This document shows, one piece after another, positions 7,700-60,370 of a stretch of DNA of 64,000 nt (positions are counted from its first letter, which is position 1; every line of letters starts with the position of its first letter). Origin of the DNA: Stegostoma tigrinum (lineage: Eukaryota); NCBI RefSeq assembly GCF_030684315.1, contig NC_081354.1:168954745-169018744 (forward strand), written 5' to 3'. Below the pieces are notes generated by a model that had not been told where the DNA came from, did no database searches, and saw only the letters and a program-made list of their open reading frames with translations. The translations under genes were made by a program, and so were the position numbers.

Positions 7700-7862
7700 C
7701 TATTTATTTCAGAATCCCCCTCCCCTCCCCCATTTCTGAAGAAGGGTCTTGACCCGAAACGTCAGCTTTCCTGCCCCTCTGGTGCTACTTGGCCTGCTTG
7801 TGCATCCAGCTCTATACCTTGTTATCTCAGGTTCCCCCGCATCTGCACTTCCTACTATCTCA
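7700..7862 (+). mobile_element. PLE 3'-end fragment with hammerhead-like core
   Basis: CTGAAGAAGGGTCTTGACCCGAAACGTC followed by the shared PLE terminus. Similar pieces at 3995-4134, 7151-7234, 37552-37675, 49782-49864, 54918-55150 and 56239-56452. Confidence 0.75.
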
Positions 7863-9877: not shown

Positions 9878-11723
9878 AGAGATAATGGGAACTGCAGATG
9901 CTGGAGAATCCAAGATAATAAAGTGTGGAGCTGGATGAACACAGCAGGCCAAGCAGCATCTCAGGAGCACAAAAGCTGACGTTTTGGGCCTAGACACTTC
10001 ATCAGAGAGGGGGATGGGGAGAGGGTTCTAGAATAAATAGGGAGAGAGGGGGAGGCGGACTGAAGATGGAGAGAAAAGAAGATAGGTGGAGAGGTGAGTA
10101 TAGGTGGGGAGGTAGGGAGGGGATAGTTCAGTCCAGGGAAGACGGACGGGTCAAGGATGTGGGATGAGGTTAGTAGGTAGGAAATGGAGGTGCGGCTTGA
10201 GTTGGGAGGAAGGGATGGGTGAGAGGAAGAACAGGTTAGGGAGGCAGAGACAGGCTGGGCTGGTTTTGCGAAGCAGTGGGGGGAGGGGATGAGCTGGGCT
10301 GGTTGTGTGATGCAGTGGGGAGGTGATGAACTGGGCTGGTTTTGGGATGCGGTGGGGGAAGGGGAGATTTTGAAACTGGTGAAGTCCACATTGATATCAT
10401 TGGGCTGCAGGGTTCCCAAGCGGAATATGAGTTGCTGTTCCTGCAACCATCAGATAGCATCATTGTGGCACTGCAGGAGGCCCAGGATGGACATGTTGTC
10501 AAAAGAAAGGGAGGGGAAGTTAAAATGGATCGCGACTGGGAGGTGCAGTTGTTTATTGCGAACCGAGCAGAGGTGTTCTGCAAAGCTGTCCCCAAGCCTC
10601 CACTTGGTTTCCCCAATGTAGAGGGAGCCACACCGGGTACAATGGATAGAGTATACCAAATTGGCAGATGTGCAGGTGAACCTCTGCTTAATATGGAAAG
10701 TCATCTTGGGGCCTGAGATGGGGGTGAGGGAGGAGGTGTGGGGGCAAGTGTAGCACTTCCTGTGGTTGCAGGGGAAGGTGCCGGGTGTGGTGGGGTTGGA
10801 GGGCAGAGTGGAGCGAACAAGGGAGTCACGGAGAGAGTGGTCTCTCCAGAAGGCAGACAAGGGTGGGGATGGAAAAATGTCCTGGGTGGTGGGGTCGGAT
10901 TGTAGATGGCGGAAGTGTTGGAGGATGATGCGTTGTATCCGGAGGTTGGTGGGGTGGTGTGTGAGAATGAGGGGGATCCTCTTAGGGTGGTTGTGGTGGG
11001 GGTGGGGTGTATGGGATGTGTTGCGGGAAATGCAGGAGACGCGGTCAAGGGCGGTCTCGACCACTGCGGGAGGAAAGTTGTGGTCCTTGAAGAACGTGGA
11101 CATCTGGGATGTGCGGGAGTGGAATGCCTCATCCTGGGAGCAGCTGCGGCGGAGGTGGAGGAATTGGGAATAGGGGATGGAATTTTTGCAGGAGGGTGGA
11201 TGGGAGGAAGTGTATTCTAGGTAGCTGTGGGAGTCGGTGGGCTTGAAATGGACATCAGTTACAAGCTGGTTACCTGAGATGGAGACTGAGAGGTTCAGGA
11301 AGGTGAGGGATGTGTTGGAGATGGCCCAAGTGAACTTGAGGTTGGGGTGGAAGGTGTTGGTGAAGTGGATGAACTGTTCGAGCTCCTCTGGGGAGCAAGA
11401 GGCAGCGCCGATATCGTCATCAATGCGACGGAGGAAGAGGTGGGGTTTGGGGCCTGTGTAGGTGCGGAAGAGATCCCACCTTCTTGACCTGTCCGTCTTT
11501 CCTGGACTGACCTATCCCCTCCCTACCTCCCCACCTATACTCTCCTCTCCACCTATCTTCTTTTCTCTCCATCTTCGGTCCGCCTCCCCCTCTCTCCCTA
11601 TTTATTCCAGAACCCTCTCCCCATCCCCCTCTCTGATGAAGGGTCCAGGCCCAAAATGTCAGCTTTTGTGCTCCTGAGATGCTGCTTGGCCTGCTGTATT
11701 CATCCAGCTTCACGCTTTATTAT
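9878..11723 (-). mobile_element. 5'-truncated Penelope-like retroelement (RT C-terminus plus GIY-YIG endonuclease) with inverted terminal copy
   Basis: FLRRIDDDIG RT remnant at ~11420-11440 is in the same frame as ORF 10450-11103 (CNHRKCYTC..FTCTS..CTRCG..YIGETK..EH). Inverted 3' end at 11472-11723. 16-bp flanking duplication CTTGTCTGCCTCTATC (9862-9877 and 11724-11739). Confidence 0.9.
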
Positions 11724-14903: not shown

Positions 14904-15957
14904 GAGATAATAAAATGTGAGGCTGGATGAACACAGCAGGCCAAGCAGCATCTCAGGAGCACAAAAGCTGACGTTTCGGGCCTAGACCCTTCATCAGAGA
15001 GGGGGATGGGGAGAGGGAGCTGGAATAAATAGGGAGGGGGGGGGGGGCGGACCGAAGATGGAGACAGGTTGGACTGGTTTTGGGATGCAGTGGGTGGGGG
15101 GGGAAGAGCTGGGCTGGTTGTGTGGTGCAGTGGGGGGAGGGGACGAACTGGGCTGGTTTTGGGATGCAGTAGGGGAAGGGGAGATTTTGAAACTGGTGAA
15201 GTCCACATTGATACCATATGGCTGCAGGGTTCCCAGGCGGAATATGAGTTGCTGTTCCTGCAACCTTCGGGTGGCATCATTGTGGCAGTGCAGGAGGCCC
15301 ATGATGGACATGTCATCTAGAGAATGGGAGGGGGAGTGGAAATGGTTTGCGACTGGGAGGTGCAGTTGTTTGTTGCGAACTGAGCGGAGGTGTTCTGCAA
15401 AGCGGTCTCCAAGCCTCCGCTTGGTTTCCTCAATGTAGAGGAAGCCGCACCGGGTACAATGGATGCAGTATACCACATTGGCAGATGTGCAGGTGAACCT
15501 CTGCTTAATGTGGAATGTCATCTTGGGGCCTGCGATAGGGGTGAGGGAGGAGGTATGGGGACAAGTGTAGCATTTCCTGCGGTTGCAGGGGAAGGTGCCG
15601 GGTGTGGTGGGGTTGGAGGGCTGTGTGGAGCGAACAAGGGAGTCACGGAGAGAGTGGTGTCTCCGGAAAGCAGACAGGGGAGGGGATGGAAAAATGTCTT
15701 GGGTGGTGGGGTCGGATTGTAAATGGCGGAAGTGTCGGAGGATGATGCGTTGTATCCGGAGGTTGGTAGGGTGGTGTGTGAGAACGAGGGGGATCCTCTT
15801 AGGGCGGTTGTGGCGGGGGCGGGGTGTGAGGGGTGTGTTGCAGGAAATACGGGAGACGCGGTCAAGGGCGTTCTCGATCACTGTGGGGGGAAAGTTGCGG
15901 TCCTTAAAGAACTTGGACATCTGGGATGTGCGGGAGTGGAATGTCTTATCGTGGGAG
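14904..15957 (-). mobile_element. Penelope-like element fragment (Cys-rich linker plus GIY-YIG), inserted in CR1 ORF1
   Basis: ORF 14994-15995 contains VVYCIHCTRCGFLYIEETKRRLGDRFAEH..EQQLIFRLGTLQPYGINVD. The CR1 sequence resumes on both sides. Confidence 0.9.
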
Positions 15958-17945: not shown

Positions 17946-18089
17946 TTTCAGGTTTAAATGGGAAGATGGTTCCAAGGAAGGGTCATCGGACCTGAAATGT
18001 TAACTCTGTTTTTGCCTTCACAGATGCTGCCAGACCTGCTGAGCTTTTCCAGCAACTTTGTTTTTGTTCCATGTTTCTAAATTCTCTTT

Positions 18090-35442: not shown

Positions 35443-36760
35443 TGATAACAAGGTGTAGAGCTGGAGGAACACAGCAGGCCAAGCAGGATCATAGGAGCAG
35501 GAAAGCTGATGTTTCGGGCCTGGATCCTTCTTCAGAAAGGGGGGAGGGGAAGTAAGTTCTGAAATAAATAGGGAGAGAGGGAGAAGAGGGTAGAGGAGAA
35601 GATAGGTGGAGAGGAGACAGACAGGTCAAAGAGGTAGGGATGGAGCCAGTAAAGGTGAGTGTAGGTGAGGAGGTAGGCAGGAGTTAGGTCAATCCAGGGA
35701 GGATGGACAGGTCAAGGGGGTGGGATGAGGTTCGTAGGTAGGAGATAGGGGTGGGGCTTTAGGTTGGAGGAGGAGACAGGTGGGAGGAAGGACAGGTTAG
35801 GGAGGCGGGGACAAGCTGGGCTGGTTTTGGGATGCGTTGGGGGGAAGGGAGATTTTAAAGCTTGTAAAGCCACTCCACACTCTTCTCCAGCCCCACCACA
35901 CCCGGCACTTTTCCCTGCAACTCCAGGAAGTGCTACGCCTCCTCCCTCACCCCCATCCCAGGCCCCAAGAAGACTTTCCACATCAAGCAGATGTTCACCT
36001 GCACATCTGCTAATGTGGTATACTGCATCCACTGTTCCCGTTGTGGCCTCCTCTACATTGGGGAGACCAAGCAGAGGCTTGGGGACCGCTTTGCAGAACA
36101 CCTCCGCTCGGTTCGCACTAAACAACTGCAACTTCCAGTCGTGAACAATTTCAACTCCCCCTCCCAGTCCGCAGACAACATGTCCATCCTGGGCCTCCTG
36201 CAGTGCCACAACGATGCTACCCGAGGGTTGCAGGAACAGCAACTCATATTCCGCTTGGGAACCCTGCAGCCCAATGATATCAATGTGGATTTCACCAGCT
36301 TCAAAATATCCCCTCCCTCTACCACATCCCAAACCAGCTCAGCTCGTCCCCTGCCTCCCTAACCTGTCCTTCCTCCCACCTATCCCCTCCTCCCATCTCA
36401 AGCCCCAGCCCCATCTCCTACCTACTAACCTCATCCCGCCCCCTTGACCTGTCCGTCCTCCCTGGACTGATCTAACTCCTCCCCACCTCCCCACCTATAC
36501 TCATCTTTACTGGCTCCATCCCTGCCTCTTTGACCGGTCTGTCTCCTCTCCACCTATCTTCTCCTCCATTCATCTTCTATCCACTTCACCCTCTCTCCCT
36601 AATTATTTCAGAACCTTCTTCCTCTCTCCCATTTCTGAAAAAGGGTCTAGGCCCAAAACGTCAGCTTTTGTGCTCCTGAGATGCTGCTGGGCCTGCTGTG
36701 TTCATCCAGCCTCACATTTTATTATCTTGGATTCTCCAGCATCTGCAGTTCCCATTATCA
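35443..36760 (+). mobile_element. Penelope-like element, fold-back (inverted 3' end plus GIY-YIG fragment)
   Basis: ORF 35991-36362 encodes GIY-YIG. 35443-35870 is an inverted copy of the 3' region. Confidence 0.88.
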
Positions 36761-42800: not shown

Positions 42801-42834
42801 TCGCTGATTTCTTTGGGCCTATTAATATAATTAG

Positions 42835-42990
42835 AAATCGCTGGAAATGCTGAGTTCTGAGGAAGGATCACCGGGCCTGAAACGTTAACTCTGTTTTCTC
42901 CTTCACGGATGCTGCCAGACCTGCTGAGCTTTTCCAGCAACTTCTGTTTTTGTTCCTGATTTACAGCATCCACAGCTCTTTGGGTTTTGT
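42835..42990 (+). mobile_element. Short repeat (family 2) with hammerhead-like core
   Basis: GAGTT-CTGAGGA-A-stem-GAAACGTT-AACTC plus tail GATGCTGCCAGACCTGCTGAG. Related copies at 8250-8388, 17968-18070, 24085-24183, 44178-44302, 45800-45975, 47780-47990, 48750-48940, 59540-59627 and 62478-62580. Confidence 0.7.
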
Positions 42991-43509
42991 GTTAGACATA
43001 GTGACGTGGATATCAGATTTCTAACACACCGAAGCCGGTTTTCCGTTAAAACGGGATTTGGACAAACTTAAATAAGGACAGATTGCGGTTTGATCAGATA
43101 TCAGTCTCTTATTAAAATAAAACGGCTCCTGAGTTGATTTTGCTTTAATAAGCATGAAGTGGATTTATATTCGTCCGTCTCTGTAGGCATTGTTTAATAT
43201 TTGAAATTAGCACACCCACCCCAGACCCCACCAAAAACAAATCAGAGCCTCCGCTTACTTTAACGTGCTCGGAGGTTCTCGCTTTGTCTAATTAAAATCA
43301 ACGTTCACTGGGGTTTGAAACAGAGATGGGGCGAATATTACTAATCCATCGCTAACCAGCACAAACCGAGACTAAATCCAGACTCCGAGAGTTGTCTTTC
43401 GGCTGAAGAGAGCTCTTTTCATTCACAAGTAGAGACGAAGCAAAGCAAGGGCAATCCGCCATGCCCCACTCTCTAAACTCTAAAGTTGTCACAAAAGAAA
43501 TGTATTTAC

Positions 43510-43546
43510 CGTTTTCGAAACTGGTGGGGACATCGCCTCCGGGATT
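43510..43546 (-). CDS. CD8B: CD8 beta-like gene, exon 5 (cytoplasmic tail KSRRRCPHQFRKR)
   Basis: 37-bp phase 1-2 exon, acceptor ctcttccatttttag, donor gtaaat. Basic tail with a CxH motif. Confidence 0.85.
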
Positions 43547-43675
43547 CTAAAAATGGAAGAGAAACAGGGACCTCCCGAGTAAATAAATTCTCCACAGGTG
43601 ATTGCAGTGTATCAAAGGCGAAGTTAACACACACATACGTACACACTCTGTCGCACCGACCACCCCAACCCCCCC

Positions 43676-43776
43676 CACACACACATAACCATAAACGCAC
43701 AAATACACACACACACACACACACACACATACACACACACACACACACACGCACACACACACGCACGCACACACAC
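43676..43776. repeat. Imperfect (CA)n microsatellite in CD8B intron 4
   Basis: Long CA dinucleotide run visible directly. Confidence 0.95.
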
Positions 43777-43799
43777 AAGAAACAGCTTTCGGCCCTTAC

Positions 43800-43898
43800 T
43801 CTGGATCCTGTGTTTGATGACAACAAAGATGATGGAGGTCAGGAGCATGAGGTTGCAAGCAGCAAGAGAGACCCAGATACTCCAGTTACACACGTACC
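43800..43898 (-). CDS. CD8B: CD8 beta-like gene, exon 4 (membrane-proximal Cys plus transmembrane helix)
   Basis: 99-bp phase 1-1 exon, acceptor tgttttctttgcag, donor gtaagg. Encodes GYVCNWSIWVSLAACNLMLLTSIIFVVIKHRIQ; starts G-x-x-C like mammalian CD8B GPLC. Confidence 0.88.
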
Positions 43899-44479
43899 CT
43901 GCAAAGAAAACAGCAGCACATGCCTTAGCGCAGCACAGTGTCAGTCAGAGCCACAACAAGGCAAAGAATTCCCGAGCAAAAATAACACATTGTCCACGAA
44001 ATACAAGGTCATGGTTTGCGGGTCTTTGAACCCGCGGTGAGAAAGTCATTGCCTTTCGATGCAGAATATTGTCAGTGAGCTGTCCGCCTGCATGTCAGCT
44101 CTTGTTTGCACTCCTTTAAGCAGCACCAGCTCCTGGCACCTTTCAGTCCATGAGACCGTCAGCGTCAAGCCAAGGCCAGAGCAAATTACTGCAGATGCTG
44201 GAATCTGTACCCAAATGAAGTCATCTCGACTGGAAACGTTAGTTTGCTCTCTCTCCACGGATGCTGTCTGACCTGCTGTGATCCCCAGCATTTGTTATTT
44301 TCAAATCAAGGCAGGCAGCCTGGACTTTCCAGGTGTTTGTTTCTGATGGCCCCCTCCTCAAACTTATTTCTGGAGGCAGAACATTGCACTGTTTTATTCG
44401 TTACCAATATTGAGAGATTATCAGGTTGGCATGGATGAGTCGGAACGAAGGGTCTGTTTCCATGCTGTACATCTCTATA

Positions 44480-47150
44480 ACCCTATTTAGGTTCACGATT
44501 CTCAAAAAAGTGGCCTAACCATTGTCCTGCATAGCTGCAACATGACCTTCCAATGCCAATGCTCTGTGCAAGCATGCCAAATGGTGCTTTCTCTATCCTA
44601 TCTACCTGTGACTCCACTTTCAAGGAATGATGAACCTGTATTCCAAGGTTTGTTTGTTCAGCAATACTCCCCAAGACCTATTCATTCAGTACATAAGTCC
44701 TGCCCTGACTTGCCTTTCCAAAATGTAGCACCTCACATTTATCTAAATTAAACTCCATCTGCCACTCCTCAGCCCACTGGCCCATCTGATGAAGAACCTG
44801 GTGTACTCTGAGATAACCTTCTTCACTGCACATTACACCCCCAATTTTGGTGTCATCTGCAAAATTACCAAACATTCCTCCAATATTCACAACCTAATCA
44901 TTTATATCAATGACAAAAAAGTCACTATGCATTGTTAGAAAGGCTTAGCCAGATCCCAGAAGAAATTCAACACTGGGGGTTTATCTCAGAATTCAGGGGC
45001 AGGATGGCTATCAGTGAGCTAAGACAACTGAATCTGATTGGAAAGCTGTTGCTGTGTCCATACCTCCTGTATACCAGGAAGATTTATATTAACTACAACA
45101 ACTGACTCCTGGATTATGTTGAAAGATTGCCTGAAATCTGAAATGGCTGCAGAAATCAGAAACAGTTGGATTATCCATTGTCTCATCTGCTGGGTACTAC
45201 TCCAATCTATGGCTGATGGTGAACTGAATGAGGGTTTAGATGTATCCCAGCAGAAGAAATCTTAATGTTAAATAAATCATGTCTAATGTTACTCCTCAGC
45301 AAGTAGTCCAGACTAAAGATTGAACTGCTGGATATGGGATAGATTCGGGAATTGACAACTTCATGATTTTTATCTCAAGTGAGAGAAGAAAAGTTGAGAC
45401 TAGAACTTGGCCAAGGATCATAGCTCCTCCAACATTAATCACCCTTTCTGCACCCTCCCCCCCCCACCATCACTCACAGCTAATAGAACATAGAACATAG
45501 AACATAGAACAGTACAGCACAGAACAGGCCCTTCAGCCCACAATGTTGTGCCGACCATTGATCCTCATGGATGCACCCTCAAATTTCTGTGACCATATGC
45601 ATGTCCAGCAGTCTCTTAAATGACCCCAATGACCTTGCTTCCACAACTGCTGCTGGCAACGCATTCCATGCTCTCACAACTAATGTTTGGCCAGCATTAT
45701 CTTCACTTATTCTGCCAACACATCCATTATAATCAACTGGTTAAAGTGTGCCCCTGTTTTACAAAGATGCATTCTAAAATGAACACTATTCAATGCAAAC
45801 AAAAACAAACTTACTGGAAAATCTCAACAGGTCTGGCAGCATCTGTGGACCTCGTCACTGGACCTGAAATGTTAAGCCTGCGTCCACTGCATTGACATTG
45901 CCAGACTTATTGAGTTTTTCCAGCAATTTCTGTTTTTTATTCTGATTTCCAGCATCCACAGTGCTTTGGTTTTTGTTGCTATTCAGTGCAAAATTGACAG
46001 ACATGGGGGAGTTCTGCAGTTAACCAGAGAGGACTGTAAGCATTGATAGATTGCCCCATTGCATTTTTTTAAGGCAGTACATTAAACTGGAAAGTGAGGC
46101 TGTGGGGATGTGTGATAGTTCTGTCTTGCTTAGCAATAAACAAGCAACACAGACCCTCTGCTCAGGAGGGATCTCCTTGTACACTGTAAATTGACTTGGA
46201 AATTGAATAGCAGCCTTACATTTCAGGTTTATATTTTCCTGCAGTCTCCTTACATCAAATGGTTTCATTGGAAGAGACATGAAGCTGTCCAAGGCATCCG
46301 TGACAGGTGAGCTTCTTCGCAAATCCATTCATTAACATTAGTGGGCAACAAGATAAAAACTCTCAGGCTGGCATTTCAAACCAAAGCAATTTTCTTGTTT
46401 CCAGACCTTCACATTCACCTCCCTACTGTAGGAGGTCAGATAACACTTTGCATTTATGTAGCAGCATGCAACAACTTCCAACGCGCGTCAATGACACCCA
46501 GCCACTTCAACAGATAATAGGCTGAGGCCTCCAAAGGTTTCATCTTATACATTCAGAACTATCTTCAAAGAGGCCGGGCTTTTGTAGACCAGAAGGGGGC
46601 TGGGAGAGAAGCTGCTTACTTGAGAAAGGATATACTGGCACTGGAAAGAGTGCTGTAGAGATTTACTAAGTTCATTCTGGAGTTGAGAGGGTTGGCTTAT
46701 GAGGACAGATTGAGTAGACTGGGACTTTACTCATTAAAACTTAGAAGAATGAGGGGGATTTTATAGAAACATAAAGTTATGAAGGGAAGAGATAAGATAG
46801 AAGCAGGGAGGTTGTTTCCACTAGGAGGTGAAACTAGAAGTAGGGGGCATTGCCTCAAAATAAGGGGGAGCAGATTTAGAACTCAGTTGAGGATAAGCTA
46901 CTTCACCCAAAGGGTTGTGAATCTGTGGAATTCCCTGCCCAGTGAAGCGGTTTGGCGACCTCATTTTTGAACAGTAAAGGAATTCAGGGTTATGGTGGGT
47001 AAGTGGAGCTGAGTCCATGGAAAGATCAGCCATGATTTTATTGATGTGAAAGGGCCAGTGTTGAACTTTGGCAGACAAATGAACTAATTGAATGGTAGAG
47101 CAAGCTCAGACTGGCCAGATGGTCTGGTCCTGTTCCTATTTTTTATGTTT
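44480..47150. mobile_element. CR1 fragments in CD8B intron 3 (44480-44920 -, 45484-45680 -, 46610-47150 +)
   Basis: FADDTKIGG..WQMEFN.DKCEVLHFG and FTQRVVNLWNSLP motifs. Confidence 0.8.
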
Positions 47151-48119
47151 TTATTGCCCAGGGTCAGTCACAAATGGCGCTGCCGTACAATAGGCCATAA
47201 ATAAACGCAGGGACCCGAGATTGGGAACTGCAGAAACTGTCATGAAAAGATATCCAGTAAATTCTCCAAGCACAGGGCACCCTCCCACCGTCTCCCACAA
47301 ATAGTGTTCCCCTCCAGAAAATGCGCGTGTATTCAACTGAAAATGAAAGCCTGTCCCATTTATACACACACCTACAAGCTCTTCAGAATTTACTCAGCCC
47401 CAGACCAAGGCCAGATAACGCTCCCAGATTTCTTTCTGGATCACTTTTTTCATGATGCTTGCATTTCAGTCAACATCCAGAGGCTGACTGTGAAACTGTG
47501 AATTACCGAAGAACTCAATCAGATTGTTTCCAACACGAAAAACCTTTAAAAATGAAGGAAAACGTGGGAAACATTCAACAGGCCAGGCAGCATCAATGGG
47601 AAACATTTCAGACCGGGGACGTTTCATCAGAGCTTCCAAAACAAAAAAAACACGCAAAGATGCGGCAGCGGCTTTCGGATAGCTAGGGCTTGGGGGTTGG
47701 GGAAACAGACGGTGGTAATGATTCTCATGCAATGCCGTGCTGGTAATGAACCAGCACGTTGGAAGCCAGTCCCTAAACTAAAGCAAAGAACTGAGGATGC
47801 TGGAAATTAGAAACAAGAACAGAAATAGCCTGAGAAAATCAGCAGGTCTGGTAGCATCTGGAGAGAGAAAGTAGGGTTGACGCTTTGGGTCCAGTGATCC
47901 TTCTTCAGAACTGGGTCCGAGAGTTAACTTGATTTTCATTTCTCTCTCTGCCAGACCTGCTGAATTTCCCCAACAGTTTCTGTTCTTGATAATTGTGTGT
48001 GGGGACTGTTGGGGAAACGCATTGGGCTGAAAGTAGGCATAATTATCCGTCAGATAGCCTGAACACCGCTAGTCTCTGTACCTCAAGCACAGTGAACGCA
48101 GTTTGACTATCGATCTTAC

Positions 48120-48227
48120 CGTGACTCTCCACTTTCTTCTTCTGTCGTACCTTGGGCTGGGTAACGCGATCGATTCCACCGCTTTTAGTCGTTGGGGGCG
48201 GCAAAGTTACTTTCTCTTGTTCTGGAA
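48120..48227 (-). CDS. CD8B: CD8 beta-like gene, exon 3 (Pro/Thr/Lys-rich hinge)
   Basis: 108-bp phase 1-1 exon, acceptor ctgctcgtttcag, donor gtaaga. Encodes VPEQEKVTLPPPTTKSGGIDRVTQPKVRQKKKVESH. Confidence 0.85.
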
Positions 48228-48289
48228 CTGAAACGAGCAGCATCTTAGGGGTCTGTGCTATATCCACGGACCGTCTGACAACTAACAGC

Positions 48290-48505
48290 AAGGTCAGAAA
48301 TCACAGATTGTAGTCCAACAGGTTTATTTGAAAGCACAAGCTTTCGGAGCCTCAGTCCTTCTTCAGGTATTAGTGCTGACCTCAGGGGTTGACTACTACC
48401 TGAAGAAGGAGCGACGCTGAGAAAGCTTGTGTTTTCAAACAAAGCTGATGTTGTGTGATTCCTGACCTTGTCCATCGCCAGCCCAACACCAGCACATTCA
48501 CACCA
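48290..48505. mobile_element. Short fold-back repeat (family 3) with two opposed hammerhead-like cores, CD8B intron 2
   Basis: Inverted arms, each with CTGAAGAAGGA..GAAAGCTTGTG. Confidence 0.7.
48335..48369 (-). ncRNA. Minimal hammerhead ribozyme motif (family 3), sense to the CD8B pre-mRNA
   Basis: TAC-CTGAAGA-A-GGA(CTGAGGC)TCC-GAAA-GCTT-GTG: stem I TAC/GTG, stem II GGA/TCC, palindromic AGCT stem III. Confidence 0.5.
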
Positions 48506-49037
48506 TGAGCAGCGAGGTCGGAATTGGCCCGGACCTTCCAGCAGCGACGATTTATGACTAAGCAAAGTCTGTCTTTGTTAGACTTGAGAGGAATGGCTAT
48601 CCATATTTCTAATAAGCCCCAATCCAGCCAACCAGAACCACATTAACCAGAATCTTTGGGGGGGGGGGGCGGCGGGGGGAGACGGTGTTGGAGGCTCGGT
48701 CTAATCAGAAGGAAACGGTCAGCCATTCCTTCAACAAAACTGCTGGAGATCTGAGCCAAAGCTGAAATTGCTGGAGAAACTCGGCATGTCCGGCTGTATC
48801 GTGGAGAGAGAAAAACAGTTAAAGTTTGAAGTTCAATTCTGAAGAAGGGTGGCTGACCCCGAAACATTAATTCTGTTTTCTCTCTCTCCCCAGATGCTGC
48901 CAGGCCCACTGAGCTTTTCCAAAAAAAATTGTCCTTGTCTCATTCAACAAACGGTGATTATCGTTGCTTCTTAAAGTCGATGCTTATTTTGATCATTTAT
49001 TACGGCGAAGAGTATTCACATTGGTAACGCTTCTTAC

Positions 49038-49385
49038 CTACTGTGACCACAGTTCCACTTCCCAGGTACATGGAGTAGGATTCGACCATCAGGCAATAGT
49101 AAGTGCCGTTGTCTGACTGCTGCGTGTCTTTTATGCTTAAACTGAACGACAGTCGAAAGGTATCTTTGGTTAGAACGAACCGCTCGGTTATTCCCTCTCC
49201 TGAGGTCTGTTTGTTCAGGACAGTGGCAGACTTCAGAAAATAGGCCCGGGAGTTTCCGTCTAGTTTGTACCAGAAAATCCACTCGAGTGAGCCCTTCTTC
49301 AGGTTACAGGAGAGTTCGATCTGCCCACCTTCGGTCACCACTATTTCCCTCGGAGTCTGCTGTAGCAATGATTCAGCCTGGGCAC
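49038..49385 (-). CDS. CD8B: CD8 beta-like gene, exon 2 (Ig V-set domain with J-like end)
   Basis: Acceptor ctttctgtccag, donor gtaaga. AQAESLLQQTPREIVV..IELSC..IFWYK..DNGTYYCLMVESYSMYLGSGTVVTV has the canonical Cys, Trp, DxGxYYC and GxG. The N-terminus matches mammalian CD8B SVLQQTP. Confidence 0.9.
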
Positions 49386-50124
49386 CTGGACAGAAAGGCA
49401 CAGAGCTGTTTAATTCTCCCGTTTCACCCCTCCCTCCCTTTCCCGCAAAATTCAGCTGTTTTGTCATAACACTCCTTATTCCCTTCCAGCCTTCAGCGAA
49501 TGCCGATTCGTTCGGATTTTAAACGCTCGTGCGCTTCTGACTTTCTGTCCCTTCAAGTCCGACTCAATTCAGAAGAGAATTGGTTCCTTATCTGAGATGA
49601 CACAGTATGGAGCTGTGTTATCTCTGACCCCAGCATCGGCAGTTCTTACTATCTCTTGGTTCCTTTATCTGAATGGGAGGAAAGGTGAGGGACTGGGGAA
49701 AAGCGAGCTGCTTCTGCGGAGAGCCGGCAGAGGGGCGATAGGCCGAATTGCCGCCTCCTGCTCCGCCATCATTCTCGAATTGAGATAATGGGAACTGCAG
49801 ATGCTGGAGAATCCGAGATAACAAAGCGTGGGGCTGGATGAACACAGCAGGCCAAGCAGCATCTTATCTGGAAATGGGATCTATTCCTCCAAAGGAAGCA
49901 GTTACAGGGCTGGTAAGGGATAGCAAGGGAGAGTGGCATCAATTGGGTCTCTGTTTCAAACAGCAAGCACCGGTAGAAGCGGCCGAAAGGCCTCCAACTC
50001 GGCAGTATGAATTCGTGATTTTATTCAAAAGACCTGTCCGAGTCTCCCGCTCAAAACTCGCTCAAACAAGGTGAACAGTAACGACAGGAATGTCAGTGAA
50101 ACTTTCAGCTCGAAATGCACTTAC

Positions 50125-50170
50125 TTTCAATCCAACAGCTCAGCATCCAAATGCAGCCAAGAAGGTACAT
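50125..50170 (-). CDS. CD8B: CD8 beta-like gene, exon 1 (signal peptide MYLLGCIWMLSCWIE, phase-1 end)
   Basis: ATG at 50170 in AAAATG context, 15 mostly hydrophobic codons plus A, then donor gtaagt. Splices in frame to the V exon giving ...WIESAQAESLLQQTP. Confidence 0.85.
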
Positions 50171-50320
50171 TTTACCCGCGAGGGAGATAGAAAAAAGAGA
50201 GAAACTGCTGTTTACTGAAGGCGAGGGCACGACGGTTGTGCTGAAGACAGAGAGAAAGAGGCAGAGAGAAACCAGGGACTTCCCTGTGATGCCAGGCGCC
50301 ACCAGCTGCAAGTTCAGGGT
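50171..50320 (-). promoter_or_regulatory. CD8B 5'UTR / proximal promoter region
   Basis: CpG-retaining unique DNA just upstream of the ATG, with GGGACTTCCC (kB/ETS-like, 50275-50284) and E-box CAGCTG (50303-50308). Motif matches only. Confidence 0.35.
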
Positions 50321-53300
50321 CCCGTCATTCTCACACCCATGAGATGAGATGAATTTAGCTACAGCCAAACTGTCCTGAGGCCAGGAGTCTGATCAATATT
50401 GCAACGCTAGCCCTCCTGCACGTTTCAAAAGTCATGTTTTGTTTTAAGGGACATTACAGAGTATGACAGGGATAAATAGATTGTGGACACTCCCTTCATA
50501 GACGGTTCATTCTCACCACAGATCACTGATAAACCCATATCCTGTTGTCCATTGCACATTAGTGTTAATCGTGAAACGAATGCCAAATGGGATTCCCAGG
50601 CCAGTGTAAAAATCCTGCTCAGTATTTCCATGATTTTATGTTCTTAAATCACAAATTTAATTTAGTTTAAACGCCAAATTTCGCCAAAATTCTGGCGGAA
50701 GTTACATTTGAACTGGTGTGGAGGCCGTTGAGTGTCCTGAGTTGACGCTTTGATGGAACATTTTCTTACAAAAACATGCATTTGGGTCTCAGGAAACTTC
50801 AAAAGAAAAATGGCGAAAAGAAGACCCAGAATTGTAGATTCTGTACTTCTGGTGAAAAGGATTAAACATCTTTCAAACGATTTGAATGAATCATATAAAC
50901 GTAACAGGGATTTCAGCAAATTCCTCAACTCGCACTAGTCTGAGGGCACGGAGATTGTAAACTCAAAAGTGAAGGCGATCCTCGTGAGACAAACGAAACG
51001 AAAATAATATTCTAGGCAGAGACAGTGCGTGCAATGACCAACCCGATAGTGCATTCTGGATAGGAATTATATATTCATTCGAGTATTGAGTCAAATTGAA
51101 TTCTGCTGAAGATAACCTCGCTTTTGTTCAGCTGAACGGATTGCATTCCCAACTCATGAGTCCGTGCATTCGGCTGTGTTAGTTGTTGTTTTTGTGTGGT
51201 AGGTCTGATCTGCTATGTTCAAACAAAGCCAGGAGAGCGAACAACCCAATTCTCCAGAAAACAATGTGCGTTCATCTAGAAGGAATCGCACAGGAATTGT
51301 TACGTCGCTGGCTCGGCCAACAATGATTGCCCTTGAGGATCCTTGCCCATTGAATCATGGATACTTGGGCTGGATGAATATTTCGGGCGTCACTTTTGGG
51401 TGGACAAGTTGCAAAATGCTCGCTGAGCAAAGCGGTGGACTCTGGTGGTAAGTGAGATTGCCCGCTGCCTGTGGAAGCAATGTAACTGATATCTTTAACT
51501 GTCTCTTCCCATCCTCCTGAAACCTTGATTTAAATCAAAGAACATTCCAGGGTATCTGAAGAATTTGACTTTCTACAATGCATTTGGTTAATCGCTAATT
51601 TTGGTACTGTGTTTACTAACATTTAGTAGATGAATCATTAAGTTCCATATGACACCCTCGTTGTGTGTATCAGATAAAATATCTTCGTAACTATTTCATT
51701 TGAGAATGTTTCCCACATGGACATCGCAACAAAAAAACCCTATCAACCCACGTGTTGGCTAAGATATGCTCATTTTGTACCTGGAACAATAAGAAACATC
51801 GCATTAAACTACTACATTTCTCATAAATTCGTAAATTCACTTACGGCCTCGCGGAAACCAAAGATTGTACTGTTCTATGATTTTCCAAATATGTACAATC
51901 ATAGAGTCACACGGCATGGAAACGGACCCCCTCGGTCCAATGATTCCACGCTGACCATGTTCCTAAACCAAACCAGTCCCTCTCATACATTGCGGTCTCT
52001 CTTTCTGATCTTCATAAACTGACTGCAATTACTATTAAGGATGTTGCGCCGATGTTTGTTACACCATTCTGCCAGTCTGTATTCATTCATTAAACTTTAA
52101 TTGCTCTGCAAATATACCACTGGCCACTATACTTGCTCCTGGAATTAATTGGCGAACTAATTCAAGTGAAACATTGTCTCCCCGCCTCGAGAGAGGGTCT
52201 TTTTGTTCTCACACAATTACCCAGAATGACCTTTAGTAGGTGATGTACACTGAACCGAAACACACAGAGAAAGTTCAGTTGCCATTATTCTGCACCTTAC
52301 GAATATTTTATTGTAATGTAAAATAAATACATTCAACTTCAATTACTATAAAGATTTCCTTCATTCTTTCTATTCTACCGCACTGTGTTCGGGCCTAATA
52401 TACAACCAGATGGCCATACATAGCGTCAGCTCGGAAGCAGAAGTGGAAGCAGATTGAAATCCCAGGTGTAAATCTGGAATGCAAGAACTTTCAAAAATTG
52501 ATTAGAGGATACTGTTGGCAGGTAAAGGGTCAACAGACAAGCGGCTGGTAAGATTAGGTGAATATTGAGGTTCTGGCCCAGAATAAAAAATAATCATATC
52601 TTAGATACAAACAACTGGGATCAAATTAATCCCTTGAAGACTATAAAGAGTATAGGGACATTCTTAAGAATGAAATCAGGAAAGCAAAGAGGGCATATGA
52701 GATAGCCTTGGCAGATGAGATTAAGGACAACCCAAAGAGATTCTGCAAGTATATTAAAAGCAAAAGAGCAATGAGAGATAGAGAGTAAGGCCCTGTAAAG
52801 ATCAACGAGGTCTACTTTGTGTTGAACTTTAAGAGTTGGGAGAGATATTAAAGTAATATTTGCGTCATTTTTACTGTGAAAAAAGAAAAGGAGGGTAGAG
52901 AACTTAGGGACTTAAATATTGATGCTTTGAAAACAGTTCGCATTACAATAGATGAAGTGTTTAAGGTCTCAGAAGACACTAAGGTGGATAAATCTCTGGG
53001 GCCTGATCAGGTGTATCCCAGGGCATTGTGGGAATTTAGAGAGGAAATTTCAGGGCCTCTAGCAGAGATATTTGTATCATCTGTAACCACAGGTGAGGTG
53101 CTAGAGCACTGGAGGGTGTTTAATATTGTTCCTTCATTTAAGAAAGACTGTAAAGAGAAGCCTGGAACTATAGATCTGTGGGTCTGACATCGGTGATATG
53201 TAAGTTGTTGGAGGTGATTCTGAAAGATAGGATTTACCTACATTTTGAGAGGCAAGGAATGATTAGGGATAGTCAACATTGTTTTGTGTGAAGGAAATCA

Positions 53301-53487
53301 TGTCTCAGAAATTTGATTGAGGAGGGCAAAGCAGTAGACATTGTTTACTTGGACTTTGCTAAAGCCTTTGATAAGGTTCCACATGGTAGATTAATTGGCA
53401 GAGTTAGATCACATGGGATTCAGGGTGAGTTTGCCAATTGGATTCAAAATTGGTTTTATGGTAAGAGACAAAGGGCCATGGTGAAAG

Positions 53488-54507
53488 AGATAATGGGAAC
53501 TGCAGATGCTGGAGATTCCAAGATAATAAAATGTGAGGCTGGATGAACACAGCAGGCCAAGCAGCATCTCAGGAGCACAAAAGCTGACGTTTCGGGCCTA
53601 GACCCTTCATCAGAGAGGGGGATGGGGGGAGGGAACTGGAATAAATAGGGAGAGAGGGGGAGGCGGACCGAAGATGGAGAGTAAAGAAGATAGGTGGAGA
53701 GAGTGTAGGTGGGGAGGTAGGGAGGGGATAGGTCAGTCCAGGGAAGACGGACAGGTCAAGGAGGTGGGATGAGGTTAGTAGGTAGCGGGGGGTGCGGCTT
53801 GGGGTGGGAGGAAGGGATGGGTGAGAGGAAGAACCTGTTAGGGAGGCAGAGACAGGTTGGACTGGTTTTGGGATGCAGTGGGTGGGGGGGAAGAGCTGGG
53901 CTGGTTGTGTGGTGCAGTGGGGGGAGGGGATGAACTGGGCTGGTTGAGGGATGCAGTAGGGGAAGGGGAGATTTTGAAACTGGTGAAGTCCACATTGATA
54001 CCATATGGCTGCAGGGTTCCCAGGCGGAATATGAGTTGCTGTTCCTGCAACCTTCGGGTGGCATCATTGTGGCAGTGCAGGAGGCCCATGATGGACATGT
54101 CATCAAGAGAATGGGAGGGGGAGTGGAAATGGTCTTCCCCCCCACCCACTGCATCCCAAAACCAGTCCAACCTGTCTCTGCCTCCCTAACCGGTTCTTCC
54201 TCTCACCCATCCCTTCCTCCCACCCCAAACCGCACCCCCCGCTACCTACTAACCTCATCCCACCTCCTTGACCTGTCCGTCTTCCCTGGACTGACCTATC
54301 CCCTCCCTACCTCCCCACCTACACTCTCTCCACCTATCTTCTTTACTCTCCATCTTCGGTCCGCCTCCCCCTCTCTCCCTATTTATTCCAGTTCCCTCCC
54401 CCCATCCCCCTCTCTGATGAAGGGTCTAGGCCCGAAACGTCAGCTTTTGTGCTCCTGAGATGCTGCTTGGCCTGCTGTGTTCATCCAGCCTCACATTTTA
54501 TTATATT
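53488..54507. mobile_element. Penelope-like element hairpin insertion in a CR1
   Basis: Near-perfect inverted arms (~53523-53885 vs ~54140-54504) around a GIY-YIG C-terminal fragment. 13-bp TSD GCCATGGTGAAAG (53475-53487 and 54508-54520). Confidence 0.92.
54414..54441 (+). ncRNA. Minimal type-I hammerhead ribozyme motif (PLE family 1)
   Basis: CTGATGA-A-GGGTCTAGGCCC-GAAA-CGTC. Identical minus-strand copies at 53586-53613 and 14970-14997. Stem I is weak and activity is untested. Confidence 0.6.
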
Positions 54508-56529
54508 GCCATGGTGAAAGGTTGTTTTTCAGACTGGAGGCCCTTGACTAACAGTGTTCCACATAGATTGGTACTGGGTCCACTTTTTTGTCATTTATAT
54601 AAATGATTTGGATGGGAATATAGTAGGAATGGCTAGTAAGTTTATGGAAGACACCGAAATTGGTGGTATAGTGGGCAGTGAAGAAAGTTATCTAAGATTA
54701 AAAAGAGATCATGATCAATTGGGCCAGTGGGCTGAGGAGTAGCAGATGGAGTTTAATTTGGATAAATGAAAGGTATTACATTTTGGTAAAATAAACAAGG
54801 GCAGGGCTTATACAATTAATGGTAGGACCCTGGATGGTGTTATAGAAAAGAGAGACTTAGGGATTCAGGAACATAATTCTTTGTGTCACTGGTAGACAGG
54901 GTGGTTAATAAGGCTCAGAAGTAGTAGGAACTGCAGATTCTGGAGAATCTGAGCTAACAAGGTGTAGAGCTGGATGAAGACAGCAGGCCAAGCAGCATCA
55001 GAGGAGCAGGAAGGCTGATGTTTTGGGCTTAGACCCTTCTTCAGAAATGGGGGAGGGGAAGGGGATTCTGAAATAAGTAGAGAGAGGGGGGGAGGCAGAT
55101 AGAAGATGGATGTTTTATCTGCCTCCACCTCTCTTCCTATTTATTTCAGAACACAGACAGTATTTAGTGTGTGGAATGAATTTCCAGAGGAAGTGATAGA
55201 TACAGGTGCAGTTACAATGATTGAAAGACAATTGGATAGTGACCTGTTAAGGAAAGGTTTAGGGGGATATGGGACAAACACAAGCACATGGGACTAGTTT
55301 AGTTTTGGAACATGGTCACGCGAACTAGTTGGACTGAAGGGTCTGTTTCCATGTTGTATGACACTTCGACAAAGCCAGTCTCAGTAATGGTCCTTTAGTG
55401 AATGAAGTCTGCCATTGTTACCTCATGTAGCCTCCAAGTGATTCTAATGCAACTGACTTCCAGCTTGAAGTGACACTGCAAGCCAATCGATGGCAATTAG
55501 GAATGGGCAACAGCTGCTGGGCTTGCCAGCAGACTAAATTTTGAACCTATCAAATGTTTTGTTATAAGACCGGATTTAAGATCTTCTTGCAGAGATGTTA
55601 GAGGAAACAAAATGCAACCACATAAAGCATCCAAAAAGACTACAATTCATCAAGTGTCTGATCAGCTTTCATGTGTATCGGTTCCAATTAAATTCAGATA
55701 AAGACCTAAATGTGCGCTATTTATTGCCGAGTTGGGTGCATAATCACTCAGTTGAGCTTTTAATTTTATATGGAATTTACACACAACTGGCCATTAGAGC
55801 CAATAGGCTCATACTGATGTTAATACATCACAAGAGCCAAATTCTTCTAAAGAATTGTGGATGCTGTAAATCGTATTTCTCTACTTTCCCCTTGAAAGCA
55901 TCAATGCCATTAGCCTCAGCTAAGGCACATGGCAGTGAGTCCATGTTCTAACAATACCCTGGGTGAGGAAATTATTCCTGAAGTGCTCAGGAATCTTAAA
56001 CTTGGTATCCCTACTTTCGCCTATGTACAAATGGAGATATGATCTCTAAGTCTGTCCAATCAAATTGTCTCATAATTTTAAAGATTTCAGTTGGATTACA
56101 CCTTAGCCTTCTCCTCTTCAGAGAAAAGAACTCCAGCATTTCCTTATAGTTACAATCTCATGGTTCTGTTTGCATGCACTTTTCTTAGCTAATAGAAATT
56201 CAAATTCATTAAAAAGGGAACCTGCCTCAATTATGCTGGAGATAACACAGTGTGGAGCTGAAGGAACATGGCAGGCCAGGCAGCATCAGAAGAGCAGGGA
56301 AAGTTGACATTGAAGGTCAGAATATTTTCTGAAGAAGAGTCCTGACGCAAATCTCAGCTTTCCTGTTCCTCTGATGCTGCATGGCCTGCTGTGTTCCTCC
56401 AGCTCCATACTTTGTTGTCTCTGACTCAGCATCGGCAGTTCTTGCTATCTCAGTTATGATAGATTTTATCACAAACTGCTTGCAACTTTATTGTCTCATC
56501 AGAACCTGTGATGAGCTTCTGATTATATA

Positions 56530-57110
56530 TCTGCACCATCACAGAGATGGCTTACTTCCACCCAAGTGATTTCACCCACCTCTGCCCTTTCCTCAGCTCA
56601 TCAGCTGCTGAAACCATCATCCATGCCACAGTCCCCTCTAGACTTGACTTTTCTAACATAGTCTTGGATCACCTGTCACATTTTACCCTCTATAAAACTG
56701 ATTTTTCCAAAACTTTGCAGCATCATGATAAATATCATTTCTGCAATCACCTCAGTGTTGGCTGATCGACATTGCCCTCATGAAAGCAGTGATTTGCTTT
56801 TAAAAATTCTCACCCTTGCTTTCAAAACACTCCATGGCCCAGCTCTTACCCACCTCTGCAACCTCTCCAACACTACAATCTTCAAGATACCTCAGGTCTT
56901 TTAATTCTGGACTTTTACAAATTCCCAGTTTGAATGATTCCAGCATTGATGGCTCTGCCCTCAATGGTCTAAGTCTTAAGATCTTGAAATCTGTCCCTAA
57001 ATTCTGCCTGGGTCTCTATGTGGTTGAGTGATTTATAATGTGTTTCATAATGCTGCCGTGAAGAATCTTGCCACGTTCCACAACCTTAAAGGTATTTTGT
57101 AAATGCATTA
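56530..57110 (+). mobile_element. Old L2-like LINE 3' fragment
   Basis: AAETIIHA.V.SRLDFSN motif (ORF 56547-56765), typical of the L2 ORF2 end. Confidence 0.65.
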
Positions 57111-59595
57111 TTGTTATTGAAAAGAAATGTTAATTTAGAAAGAACTCTGGCTCAGGACTGAAAACTTTATTTCATGTTACATACAGTAACTCTGAGGGAA
57201 GTTTAGAAATTGAGGTGATCTTAAGAACCACATTTGTCCTTTAAAATGAGTACAATTAAACAAGCTCATCACCAAATAGCCATCTTAAACATACCGTGTG
57301 TGCATATTTTAGCAAAATACTGGGAGCACTGGGAATCATAAAAACAGAAATGCTGAAGAAACTCTTCAGGTCTGGCAGCATCTGTGGAGAGAGAAACAGA
57401 GTTGATAATTTTAGAAAATGTATTTATAAACATCCTTATCCACAAATATAAATCAGGACAAAAGAAAATCCTTAAATTGAGTGAAAAACATCCTTTAATC
57501 CCAGCTAAACTTCCTGCCCTCTACCACAGCTCATGTCCCATGGTTACTGCTCCATCTACTAAGGAGAAAAGTTTCTTTATATCTAGTCTAGCTGTGCCCT
57601 TCATAACATTGTACACCTCAGTCAGGTCCCCCTCAGTCTTCTCTGATTTCAGGAAATCAACCCCAGCCTATCTACTCTCCCTTCATAGCTAATATGGTCT
57701 CGCAACATCCTGGCAAATCCTCTATGCAACCTCTCTGTTGTAATCATATCCTTCAAATGGTGTGGTGACCAAAACTGTACACTGTATGAGAGCTGTGGGC
57801 TAACTAACATCTTATACAGCTTGATTATGCCACCCCTGCTCGTGTGTTCATTTTTTTTGTCCTGATTTGTGGAAATATATCCTATTGTTACGAAGGTGTG
57901 TATAGCACTCATGGATTGGGAGGCAGGCAGTTAGAATTTGGTAATTGTAAAAGGCTAGATGGGAAAACATTGTGTGATCCCTTTAAAAGAAAATGTGTTT
58001 TTTCTATGCTTAGGGACTTAAAATGGATGTTTTGTGAGCAGCAGCAGTTTGCAAGTATACAGAGAGCACCTGAACTGAACCATATGTATCAAAATGGTGT
58101 ACAATTAGCAGGCTAAGAAGCAGTTTTTAACAAAACAACAATGTTTTGAATTTAGCTAATCAATTTAAACCTGGCACTTAGATACCAAAAGCTTATTAAA
58201 TTTAAGTCTGATGGTTTTGACAACATAGGAAGAATCCAATTGTAAGAAATATTGATAGATCATCATGGGTATAGAAGAAGAGAGCAGTTGACAAAGCCCC
58301 AGAGCTAAATGCCATCCACCAGAGCTAACAGCCCTTAGCTCTCAAAAGAGAATCACTGGCTCACACAGCCTCCTCTCTTGTCTTAGAGAAAGCAAAGGTA
58401 ACAAAAGTACCCACAGCACAACAGGTTAATATTCCTGACAGAAGAACCAATGGAGCAGGCACAAAGCATTCAGTAAGACACGTATCGTGGCTGTAATTTT
58501 GAGAGACTAAATTCTATTTTTTTTATTTTTTAAGCGGGGGTTTTTATTTGTTGGATCAGCATACCATTAGTATCTTGCTTTATTCAGGAATAGTTAGTAG
58601 TTAGAAGGTGTTTATTTGGTTTGTTAATGTGTGAGAGGGATTTAGTTTATTTAACCACTGGAAGTTGATGAAAGGCAGACTACAGCACTTTTCACACACC
58701 TTTTACAGATTGTAGGGCAAGGTGCTCCTTTTTGGGTGTTTTGCTATTAGTTCTTTTAGTGGGTGGAGTGTCAACCTCCACTTTATAACAGACCGGGGTC
58801 TGGAGTCCAGGATTTGGACAGATCTGAATAGGTTTGGACGGATTTAGATGGATTTGGACAGATTTGAACAGAACTAGGATATAAAATGTCCCAGCAAGTT
58901 TAAACAGACTTGGGGACTGGTGGGTTGATCATTAAATAAAACTTAGGTGACAAGTGGAAAATCTGTTTAATTTTGGTTGCTAGTTGTTTGTGAAATCAAA
59001 AGTGGGAAAATTGCTCTTAGCATTGCTAAAGAGGCTCTAGGGGCCAAAAATGCTTCCCAAATTTGCCAAGAAAGTTGAGAAAGACAGAAAAAGGTGACAC
59101 TTTTAAAATTAGCAGACAGCCTAAAATTGGATTTAAATAGGAATAATAAGACAGCTGAAATTGTAACGGAGTTAGTCAAATATTTAGGAATATCAGATAA
59201 ACAGTCAAGTGGATTGGATCTGGAAAAAAATTGAATTGCAAATAGGACAACTGGAGTTATAGGACAAAGAAGGGGAAAGAAAGTTCCTAGCTGAAGACAA
59301 ACAAAGAGAATTGAAAAAGTTTAAATTACAGCTGAAAGCAGAGGAAAGAGAAAAGGAAAGAATTGCTCTGGCAGAGCAAAAAGAAGAGAGAAGAAAAGTA
59401 AAGGGAGAGAGAGTTTGAACTTTAGAAGTTGGCAATTAGACTAGAAAGTCAATTTAAAAGGTTGGAGATGAAGTTAGAATGTCGGCTTAGGGAGGAGGTC
59501 AGTGATGATGAGCAAACCCATTGTAGCCAAAAGCCTAGACGTTGCTGGAAAAGCTCAGCAGGTCTGGCAGCAGCTGTGAACAGATAATCAGAGCT

Positions 59596-59625
59596 AACGT
59601 TTCGGGTCTGGTGACCCTTCCTCAG
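59596..59625 (-). ncRNA. Minimal hammerhead ribozyme motif (family 2)
   Basis: CTGAGGA-A-GGGTC-ACCA-GACCC-GAAA-CGTT with a perfect 5-bp stem II. Confidence 0.55.
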
Positions 59626-59699
59626 AAGGTCTGGTAGGGATATATACAAATATGTCAAAACCTTACCAAAATGGTGTCCGCTGTGGGCGGGGTTCCATC

Positions 59700-60370
59700 G
59701 GTGTCCGCTGTGGTATATTGTATCCATTGCACCCGGTGTGGCTTCCTCTACATTGGGGAAACCAAGCGGAGGCTTGGGGACCACTTTGCAGAACACCTCC
59801 GCTCGGTTCACAACAAACAACTGCACCTCCCAGTCGCGAACCATTTCAACTCCCCCTCCCATTCCTCAGACGACATGTCCATCATGGGCCTCTTGCAGTG
59901 CCACAACGATGCCACCCGAAGGTTGCAGGAACAGCAACTGATATTCTGCTTGGGAACCCTGCAGCCCAATGGTATCAATGTGGGCTTCACAAGCTTCAAA
60001 ATCTCCCCTTCCCCCACTGCATCCCAAAACCAGCCCAACCTGTCCCTGTTTCCCTAACCTGTTCTTCCTCTCACCCATCCCTTCCTCCCACCTCAAGCCG
60101 CACCTCCATTTCCTACCTACTACCTCATCCCGCCTCCTTGACCTGTTCATCTTCACTGGACTGACCTATCCCCTCCCTACCTCCTCACCTATATTCTCCT
60201 CTCTACCTATCTTGTTTTCTCTCCATCTTTGGTCCGCCTCCCCCTCTCTCCCTATTTATTCCAGTTCTCTCTCCCCATTCGCCTCTCTGATGAAGGGTCG
60301 CGGCCCGAAACATCAGCTTTTGTGCTCCTGAGATGCTGCTTGGCCTGCTGTGTTCATCCAGCTCCACACT
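59700..60370 (+). mobile_element. Penelope-like element fragment (GIY-YIG plus 3' end) nested in Gypsy gag
   Basis: ORF 59671-60057 (VVYCIHCTRCGFLYIGETKRR) followed by the shared 3' terminal sequence. Confidence 0.88.

Follow-up and report, generated by a model that had tools for sequence, protein, structure and literature searches.

Minimal hammerhead motifs in Stegostoma tigrinum as probable cut-short 3' ends of three Penelope-like families

Hammerhead motifs and element ends in the window

We analysed a 64-kb stretch of the genome of the shark Stegostoma tigrinum (contig NC_081354.1, positions 168,954,745 to 169,018,744; hereafter the window, numbered from its first letter), in which three short repeat families each carry a minimal hammerhead ribozyme motif. 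With a probability of roughly 0.85, we read these repeats as cut-short 3' ends, or pseudo-long terminal repeats (pLTRs), of three distinct Neptune-like families of Penelope-like elements (PLEs), produced by the insertion mechanism proposed below. The six hammerhead strings cited in the original prediction were all found verbatim, at the positions and on the strands given there. A strict descriptor (both boxes, a stem II of at least 3 bp, a palindromic stem III and the NUH triplet) matched 6 sites in the window, compared with 0 to 1 in each of 50 order-2 Markov simulations (2 matches in all). A chance origin of the motifs is excluded. An Rfam search of the window returned no hammerhead at the gathering score or at E≤5, and the motifs are probably too small for the Rfam hammerhead models.

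The catalytic boxes CUGANGA, GAAA and NUH and the bulged base before stem II were present as predicted, as was a loopless palindromic stem III (ACGU in families 1 and 2, AGCU in family 3). More than 20 copies or fragments had been claimed for the 64 kb; a BLAST census with a single natural reference sequence per family counted 35 (19 of family 1, 14 of family 2 and 2 of family 3). The core is spanned by 24 of these, and boxes, stem II and palindrome are intact in 6 of the 24. In 78 sampled 10-kb stretches the density was about 233 family 1, 90 family 2 and 12 family 3 ends per Mb, which extrapolates to roughly a million ends of the three families in the 3.2-Gb genome.

Within the window, remnants of the reverse transcriptase (RT), linker and GIY-YIG endonuclease lie upstream of the family 1 motif. 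The motifs at 53586-53613 and 54414-54441 had been listed as separate family 1 copies, and proved to be the two arms of one back-to-back (5'-to-5') insertion at 53475..54520, bounded by a 13-nt target-site duplication at 53475-53487 and 54508-54520. The minus-strand arm (53486..54134) carries a GIY-YIG remnant, the intact motif 53586-53613 and a 3' tail ending +127 from C3, and the plus-strand arm (54133..54508), with the intact motif 54414-54441, is untailed and ends at +94. A 5'-truncated family 1 PLE at 14905..15957 (minus strand) retains a linker and GIY-YIG remnant, the untranslated region (UTR) and the intact motif 14970-14997. The longest family 1 remnant of the window, at 9874..11511 (minus strand), comprises the C-terminal part of the RT, the Cys linker and GIY-YIG; its motif is mutated, and it is paired with an inverted arm at 11473-11727 (plus strand). 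An older back-to-back pair at 35444..36759, with both motifs damaged, includes a GIY-YIG remnant at 35868-36362 on the plus strand (Pfam PF01541, E=1.8e-4). A further 3' end with a GIY-YIG remnant was located at 59709..60370 (plus strand), where a CpG change destroyed the palindrome, and an older family 1 subfamily end at 7699..7861 (plus strand) has boxes, stem II and palindrome intact (7736-7763). The only Rfam matches were sub-threshold microRNA look-alikes on a long hairpin at 55065-55151. An older family 1 copy overlaps this hairpin at its own 5' end, and the hairpin is probably the junction of two back-to-back arms.

Family 2 is represented by short copies. The one at 42853-42988 (feature 42830..42988, plus strand) starts at -4 and is tailed, and the approximately 22 nt ahead of it resemble, as read by eye, an inverted piece of its own tail. 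Its motif at 42852 is one of the six cited strings; its stem II is damaged, with 2 bp and then a mismatch. The stem I proposed for it, GAGTT/AACTC, begins with a G that is junction sequence, and since family 2 copies linked to an open reading frame (ORF) read CAGTT, with C and not G before AGTT, the element-encoded stem I is AGTT/AACT. The copy at 59541..59627 (minus strand, motif from 59596) starts at -2 and has intact boxes, a 5-bp stem II, an intact palindrome and a stem I of only 2 bp; that at 8246..8387 (minus strand) starts at -3, is tailed and has a mutated GAAA box. Other family 2 stumps lie at 3917, 6458, 17969, 24086, 45798/45854, 47785, 48765/48833, 57340 and 62479. Downstream of the motif, typical family 2 copies have a pyrimidine tract that ends in CACAG, with ATG next, like a splice acceptor, and a branch-point-like TTAAC lies across the predicted cut site; one window copy (42883-42910, plus strand) has CACGG in place of CACAG. 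The intron of Drosophila virilis Penelope ends at its hammerhead (PMC4209133). Family 3 forms a back-to-back pair at 48289..48495. Its minus-strand arm (48289-48375) runs from -9 to +85 with an intact motif at 48335-48369, and its plus-strand arm (48392-48495) runs from -8 to +109 with a damaged stem II.

Stem I is CU/AG in family 1, AGUU/AACU in family 2 and AACAC/GUGUU in family 3, and stem II has 4, 5 and 3 bp, respectively; the 2-bp stem I of family 1 is a marginal pairing. A fourth hammerhead family, absent from the window, has a 6-bp stem II, stem I UCA/UGA and an ACGU palindrome (L045:1340-1610, also L218, L103, L163, L082, L186 and L127). Three of its loci gave no match at the protein level with the family 1 ORF, and for this reason it may belong to another PLE clade. 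Older PLE subfamilies with hammerhead variants of their own were also met in L033 (minus strand of the oriented locus) and L007, with younger back-to-back family 2 or 3 stumps nested inside them. The prediction that the stems change in a compensatory manner holds between families and fails within family 1, where the copies merely decay. Across the four families the boxes are invariant, and both stems and the palindrome vary yet still pair; the covariation is a handful of independent events. No two-sided change of a stem II pair was found among 125 family 1 copies, and CpG decay has broken the palindrome in 44 of them. Divergence in family 1 was 0.024 in the core versus 0.052 in the tail, a difference left unused as evidence since alignment across the core was how these copies had been selected. 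Every family allows a double-hammerhead fold to be drawn, and the motifs are predicted to cleave only as dimers, the form of PLE hammerhead cleavage cited in a review (PMC6765202).

Coding regions joined to the three families

Family 1 had been taken for a PLE 3' end, and this is corroborated by locus L192, which has the layout pLTR-ORF-pLTR and carries two motifs on the same strand, separated by 3.58 kb. A genome search with family 1 scored 115 of 272,736 candidates, 114 of them non-self at 86-89% identity, and revealed open frames of up to 1094 codons among the scored candidates. Five copies have frames of 927-1094 codons, two of them with unrelated or inverted N-terminal sequence. The protein, encoded by a single ORF, contains YIDD, a C-X4-C-XX-C linker (CNRRKCYTC) and, at the C terminus, a GIY-YIG domain. 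Pfam analysis of the 1094-codon frame gave RVT_1 at E=1.8e-5 and GIY-YIG at E=0.004, both under the curated cut-offs. The first ATG of the frame lies some 167 nt downstream from the motif. Family 1 is young; families 2 and 3 are decayed.

Families 2 and 3 had been proposed to be non-autonomous, retrozyme-like parasites. We found the ends of both joined to PLE coding regions of their own elsewhere in the genome, an attachment that had been named beforehand as the observation that would tell against the proposal. Since ORF-linked copies of both ends exist, the claim of separate non-autonomous families, in the form proposed, is refuted. For family 2, the first 30 exact-motif loci, found with a pattern that began with the junction G, had nothing in common upstream except inverted arms; a longer UTR was revealed by one locus. 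When 30 loci were then collected by this long UTR, RT or endonuclease remains lay upstream in 24, the family 2 end lay downstream in 27, and 22 had both. Selection by an RT fragment alone yielded 19 loci, 15 of which have the family 2 end downstream (14 behind the long-form junction, 12 at +927 to +991). Without its leading G the pattern had 236 exact matches in the genome, and 8 of the first 30 were long. The family 2 RT core is about 62% identical to that of family 1.

Family 3 has 39 exact matches in the genome, of which 35 were examined; 25 extend at least 48 nt into a common UTR and 10 start at -16..-3. An endonuclease remnant lies upstream in locus L003 (E=2e-9). Among 25 loci picked by endonuclease DNA (one of them L003), the family 3 end of the window was downstream in 22, a match to the family 1 protein at 24-44% was obtained in 15, and both were present in 13; one of the 15 protein matches depends in part on a 59% match, which could come from a nested family 2-type copy. 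YIDD motifs were recognized in L268 and L269. What is left of the coding regions in families 2 and 3 is broken but matches the family 1 protein, with decayed equivalents of the Cys linker as read by eye. Pfam analysis of 11 stop-free fragments of the two families gave one weak RT match and one weak unrelated match. Taken on sequence, the identity of the stumps as 5'-truncated 3' ends of three Penelope families is very highly probable. The families appear Neptune-like, judged from their layout.

Ends of the copies and the proposed insertion mechanism

The 5' ends of copies were scored against references from L192 and L204. For family 1, 172 copies at ≥85% tail identity were drawn from 1.23 Mb not chosen for this family, and 51 of the 115 at risk ended at -10..+1, compared with 7 in the 36 nt upstream. 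The corresponding fraction was 28 of 34 in family 2 (59 of 189 matches kept at ≥85% identity, as unfiltered counts take in family 1 copies) and 9 of 35 in family 3. Short copies thus begin 1-9 nt upstream of the catalytic core and not at the cut site; because the short cDNAs span that site, the RNA template would have been uncleaved. Target duplications of at least 8 nt adjoin 10 of 25 solo short family 2 copies versus 1.7% of 600 mismatched controls, and the 5' edge is therefore real. No variant private to short copies was found among 63 short and 58 long family 1 copies, and no short-only family 1 subfamily was found. A second, weaker rise of family 1 5' ends at +26..+37 (18, versus 6 and 9 in the intervals on either side; p ~0.01, the interval being chosen afterwards) sits at and just after the predicted cut at +28 and may reflect cleaved RNA. 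In family 2 only 4 of 51 ends fell in this interval.

The 3' ends are bimodal, with the two modes about 35-40 nt apart (+92/+127 in family 1, approximately +97/+135 in family 2), in agreement with the tail and the pair of RT start sites described for an Anolis PLE (PMC11167929). One tailed and one untailed arm were seen in 35 of 36 family 1 pairs (p=1e-9), 10 of 14 family 2 pairs and both family 3 pairs (2/2); the tailed fraction of unpaired family 1 copies is 53%. A tail on one side only has been reported in PMC8557442 and PMC3846280. Families 1 and 2 both have GATGCTG and, about 50-60 nt away, the complementary CAGCATC (window 42902-42965, plus strand, and 53486-53570, minus strand), possibly a conserved hairpin around the two RT start sites.

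We also counted neighbours of 214 core-bearing copies across 844 kb, made up of the window and 78 stretches of 10 kb taken at even spacing. Same-strand neighbours numbered 0 within 100 nt and 3 within 400 nt; back-to-back pairs numbered 24 and 27. No tandem array of same-strand hammerheads was found in the window. Opposite-strand pairs presumably cannot dimerise within one transcript, and most copies would therefore be inactive even if intact. The motif likely works only in the RNA of the parent element and not in the scattered copies.

These data are consistent with a mechanism in which the protein of the element would cut both DNA strands and reverse transcription would start at two internal sites downstream of the motif, as it does in vitro for the Anolis PLE. 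The RT would copy uncleaved RNA through the motif and likely run off the RNA 5' end just upstream of it, leaving stumps of 90-140 nt. Priming of both strands would yield a back-to-back pair, and the stumps would afterwards decay neutrally. For the step that places the RNA 5' end just upstream of the motif, we put the odds at about even.

Several observations weigh against this account. The 5' ends were read from BLAST alignments, with an accuracy of a few bases, and without the identity filter other families inflate their pile-up. Of the 26 copies that include the ORF start, only 3 end at -10..+1, compared with 45 of 110 ordinary copies (Fisher p=0.005); long copies would therefore come mostly from read-through RNA, which leaves the RNA-start step weak. 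No intact ORF was found for family 2 or 3, the longest frame among the family 2-type matches listed being about 510 codons, and the last copies of these families could have been moved by the protein of another family. The double-hammerhead fold lies 14-33 kcal/mol above the minimum-energy fold of the dimer in 8 of 8 family 1-3 examples, under an energy model that ignores tertiary contacts of the core. Such an unfavourable fold fits the low in vitro activity of PLE hammerheads (PMC4209133) and their dependence on protein (PMC11167929).

It is doubtful, though possible, that the 5' edge is set at the hammerhead fold itself, by a block or by trimming, rather than by the RNA start. The start does move outward with the length of stem I (mostly -4..+1 for 2 bp in family 1, -6..-1 for 4 bp in family 2 and -9..-3 for 5 bp in family 3), and long copies often read through the motif. 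The fourth family, with its 6-bp stem II, lacks the pile-up (11 of 11 close copies reach -40), which disfavours a mere hairpin effect, and a simple RT stall would be expected 3' of the fold and not behind it. On these grounds, stops lying behind the fold and none in the fourth family, an RT stall at the fold was rejected. We regard it as unlikely that solo pLTR stumps propagate like SINEs (short interspersed elements) within each family, each with an internal promoter that drives its transcription and with renewed mobilisation in trans. In line with this, 5' ends pile up much more strongly at the motif beside the RT start than at its counterpart 3.6 kb upstream, initiator-like TCAGT (family 2) and TCACT (family 3) overlap the start points, and the pLTR of D. 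virilis Penelope has an internal promoter (PMC2377424). The family 1 start point, though, has no initiator-like A, and family 1 has no short-only variants (the lowest p is 0.009 among the 18 variants listed, with both alleles in both classes). Nor is there a clear excess of untemplated G before the family 2 start (A:G:T about 4:4:2 among 100 listed of 138, by eye); a cap-derived extra G at this point is not supported.

That the motifs are chance look-alikes or structural relics, non-catalytic even in the parent element, seems improbable. The lack of an Rfam match and the unfavourable dimer fold are in line with it, cleavage is dispensable for in vitro insertion by the Anolis PLE (PMC11167929), and Craig et al. 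note that hammerheads may merely parasitise PLEs (PMC8557442). Against this stand the simulations, the compensatory stems and palindrome around invariant boxes in four families, and the modest family 1 rise by the predicted cut, an interval chosen afterwards. We consider it very improbable that families 2 and 3 are separate, retrozyme-like elements that borrow the RT and endonuclease of family 1. An origin of retrozymes from pLTRs has been proposed (10.64898/2026.07.22.740005), most family 2 copies are short with a nearly fixed start (28/34) and target duplications, and neither family has yielded an intact ORF. Yet both ends are attached to PLE coding regions of their own, family 1, with intact ORFs, has the same fixed start, the 214 core-bearing copies include no tandem units, and copies span the cut site rather than run from cut to cut. 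Retrozymes, by definition, come as tandem units that bear two or more motifs (10.64898/2026.07.22.740005; PMC7229834). The non-LTR (non-long terminal repeat) retrozyme class was accordingly rejected for these families, given the lack of tandem units and the presence of their own coding regions.

Returning to the truncation of parental PLEs, a stronger form of this reading would treat the roughly one million stumps as a fossil readout of how the PLE replication complex works: a protein dimer would prime both cut strands, the two RNAs perhaps being held together by their palindromes, with the main edge marking the start of transcription just ahead of the ribozyme and the weaker +28 edge marking ribozyme-cut RNA. 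Each strand would prime at a different internal start site, which would explain why, in 35 of 36 pairs, one arm is tailed and the other is not. We hold this stronger form to be tentative and on balance unlikely; if true, it would provide genomic evidence for cleavage by PLE hammerheads in vivo.

Relation to known elements and neighbouring features

The motifs are minimal type-I hammerheads of the PLE kind and closely resemble those in pLTRs of metazoan PLEs (Cervera and De la Pena 2014, PMC4209133), with which they share CUGANGA-N, a stem II starting with G-C, GAAA and a loopless palindromic stem III, as well as the occurrence of several families per genome, mostly as single copies of truncated PLEs, and opposite-strand pairs. 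Such hammerheads are reported there for the fish elements Xena, Poseidon and Neptune and for coelacanth and Xenopus; no shark case was found in the parts of the text examined. The 2-bp stem I of family 1 differs from the 4-5 bp of Schistosoma, stem II having 3-5 bp here, and families 2 and 3 have U at position 17, unlike the minimal hammerheads described in that paper.

The coding layout agrees with that of endonuclease-bearing (EN+) PLEs of the Neptune/Nematis type (Craig et al. 2021, PMC8557442): one ORF, an RT, a CX2-5CXXC linker and, at the C terminus, GIY-YIG. Partial tandems, an adjacent inverted 5'-truncated copy and a one-ended tail are further likenesses, and pLTR tandems, inverted truncated copies and an optional tail of 30-40 nt were all met in the S. 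tigrinum families. The stumps described here differ from those EN+ PLEs in being extremely short and abundant and in starting at the 5' edge of the motif. PAc, a Poseidon PLE of Anolis (Frangieh et al. 2024, PMC11167929), likewise has two internal RT start sites that define a tail; cutting and extension of both strands, an uncleaved RNA template and a protein-assisted hammerhead, all described for it, are what we propose here. PAc is of another clade, and its ORF starts in stem II, in contrast to the downstream first ATG of family 1. Metazoan non-LTR retrozymes (Cervera and De la Pena 2020, PMC7229834; Li et al. 2026, 10.64898/2026.07.22.740005) are also short and non-coding, with a type-I hammerhead and kinship to pLTRs. 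They are tandem repeats with at least two motifs (canonical hammerheads in PMC7229834) and form circular RNAs, whereas the copies studied here are solitary or back-to-back and continuous with a PLE UTR and ORF. One cartilaginous fish was sampled in 10.64898/2026.07.22.740005.

In the literature searched we found neither a description of PLE hammerheads in sharks nor one of a start fixed at the motif, though supplements, Repbase and subscription journals may hold one. Truncated solo and inverted copies and PLE-borne minimal hammerheads are already published for fish, amphibians and reptiles, to which three S. tigrinum families are now added. The motif class is known, and the finding is largely ordinary apart from the geometry of the ends, a modest and testable extra. 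With hundreds of thousands of copies whose 5' and 3' ends can be mapped, and a young family with frames of about 1090 codons, it becomes possible to test directly where the RNA starts, where it is cut and whether both strands are primed. The question on which these ends bear is the in vivo role of PLE hammerheads.

Other features of the window include an immunoglobulin V-set exon at 49003-49380 (minus strand; Pfam PF07686, E=1e-16), whose best solved relatives are V domains of T-cell receptors and antibodies. PLE stumps lie on either side of it. A J-like G-x-G motif sits in the same exon as the V-set, and the exon therefore probably belongs to a non-rearranging CD8-like or similar receptor. 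Fragments of long interspersed elements, which we take to be of CR1 type, were found at 17443-17982 (minus strand), 5225-5713, 16765-17232, 32214-32849 and 14558-14900; they comprise one RT (Pfam PF00078), three C-terminal ends of ORF2 and one GDSL/SGNH-like piece.

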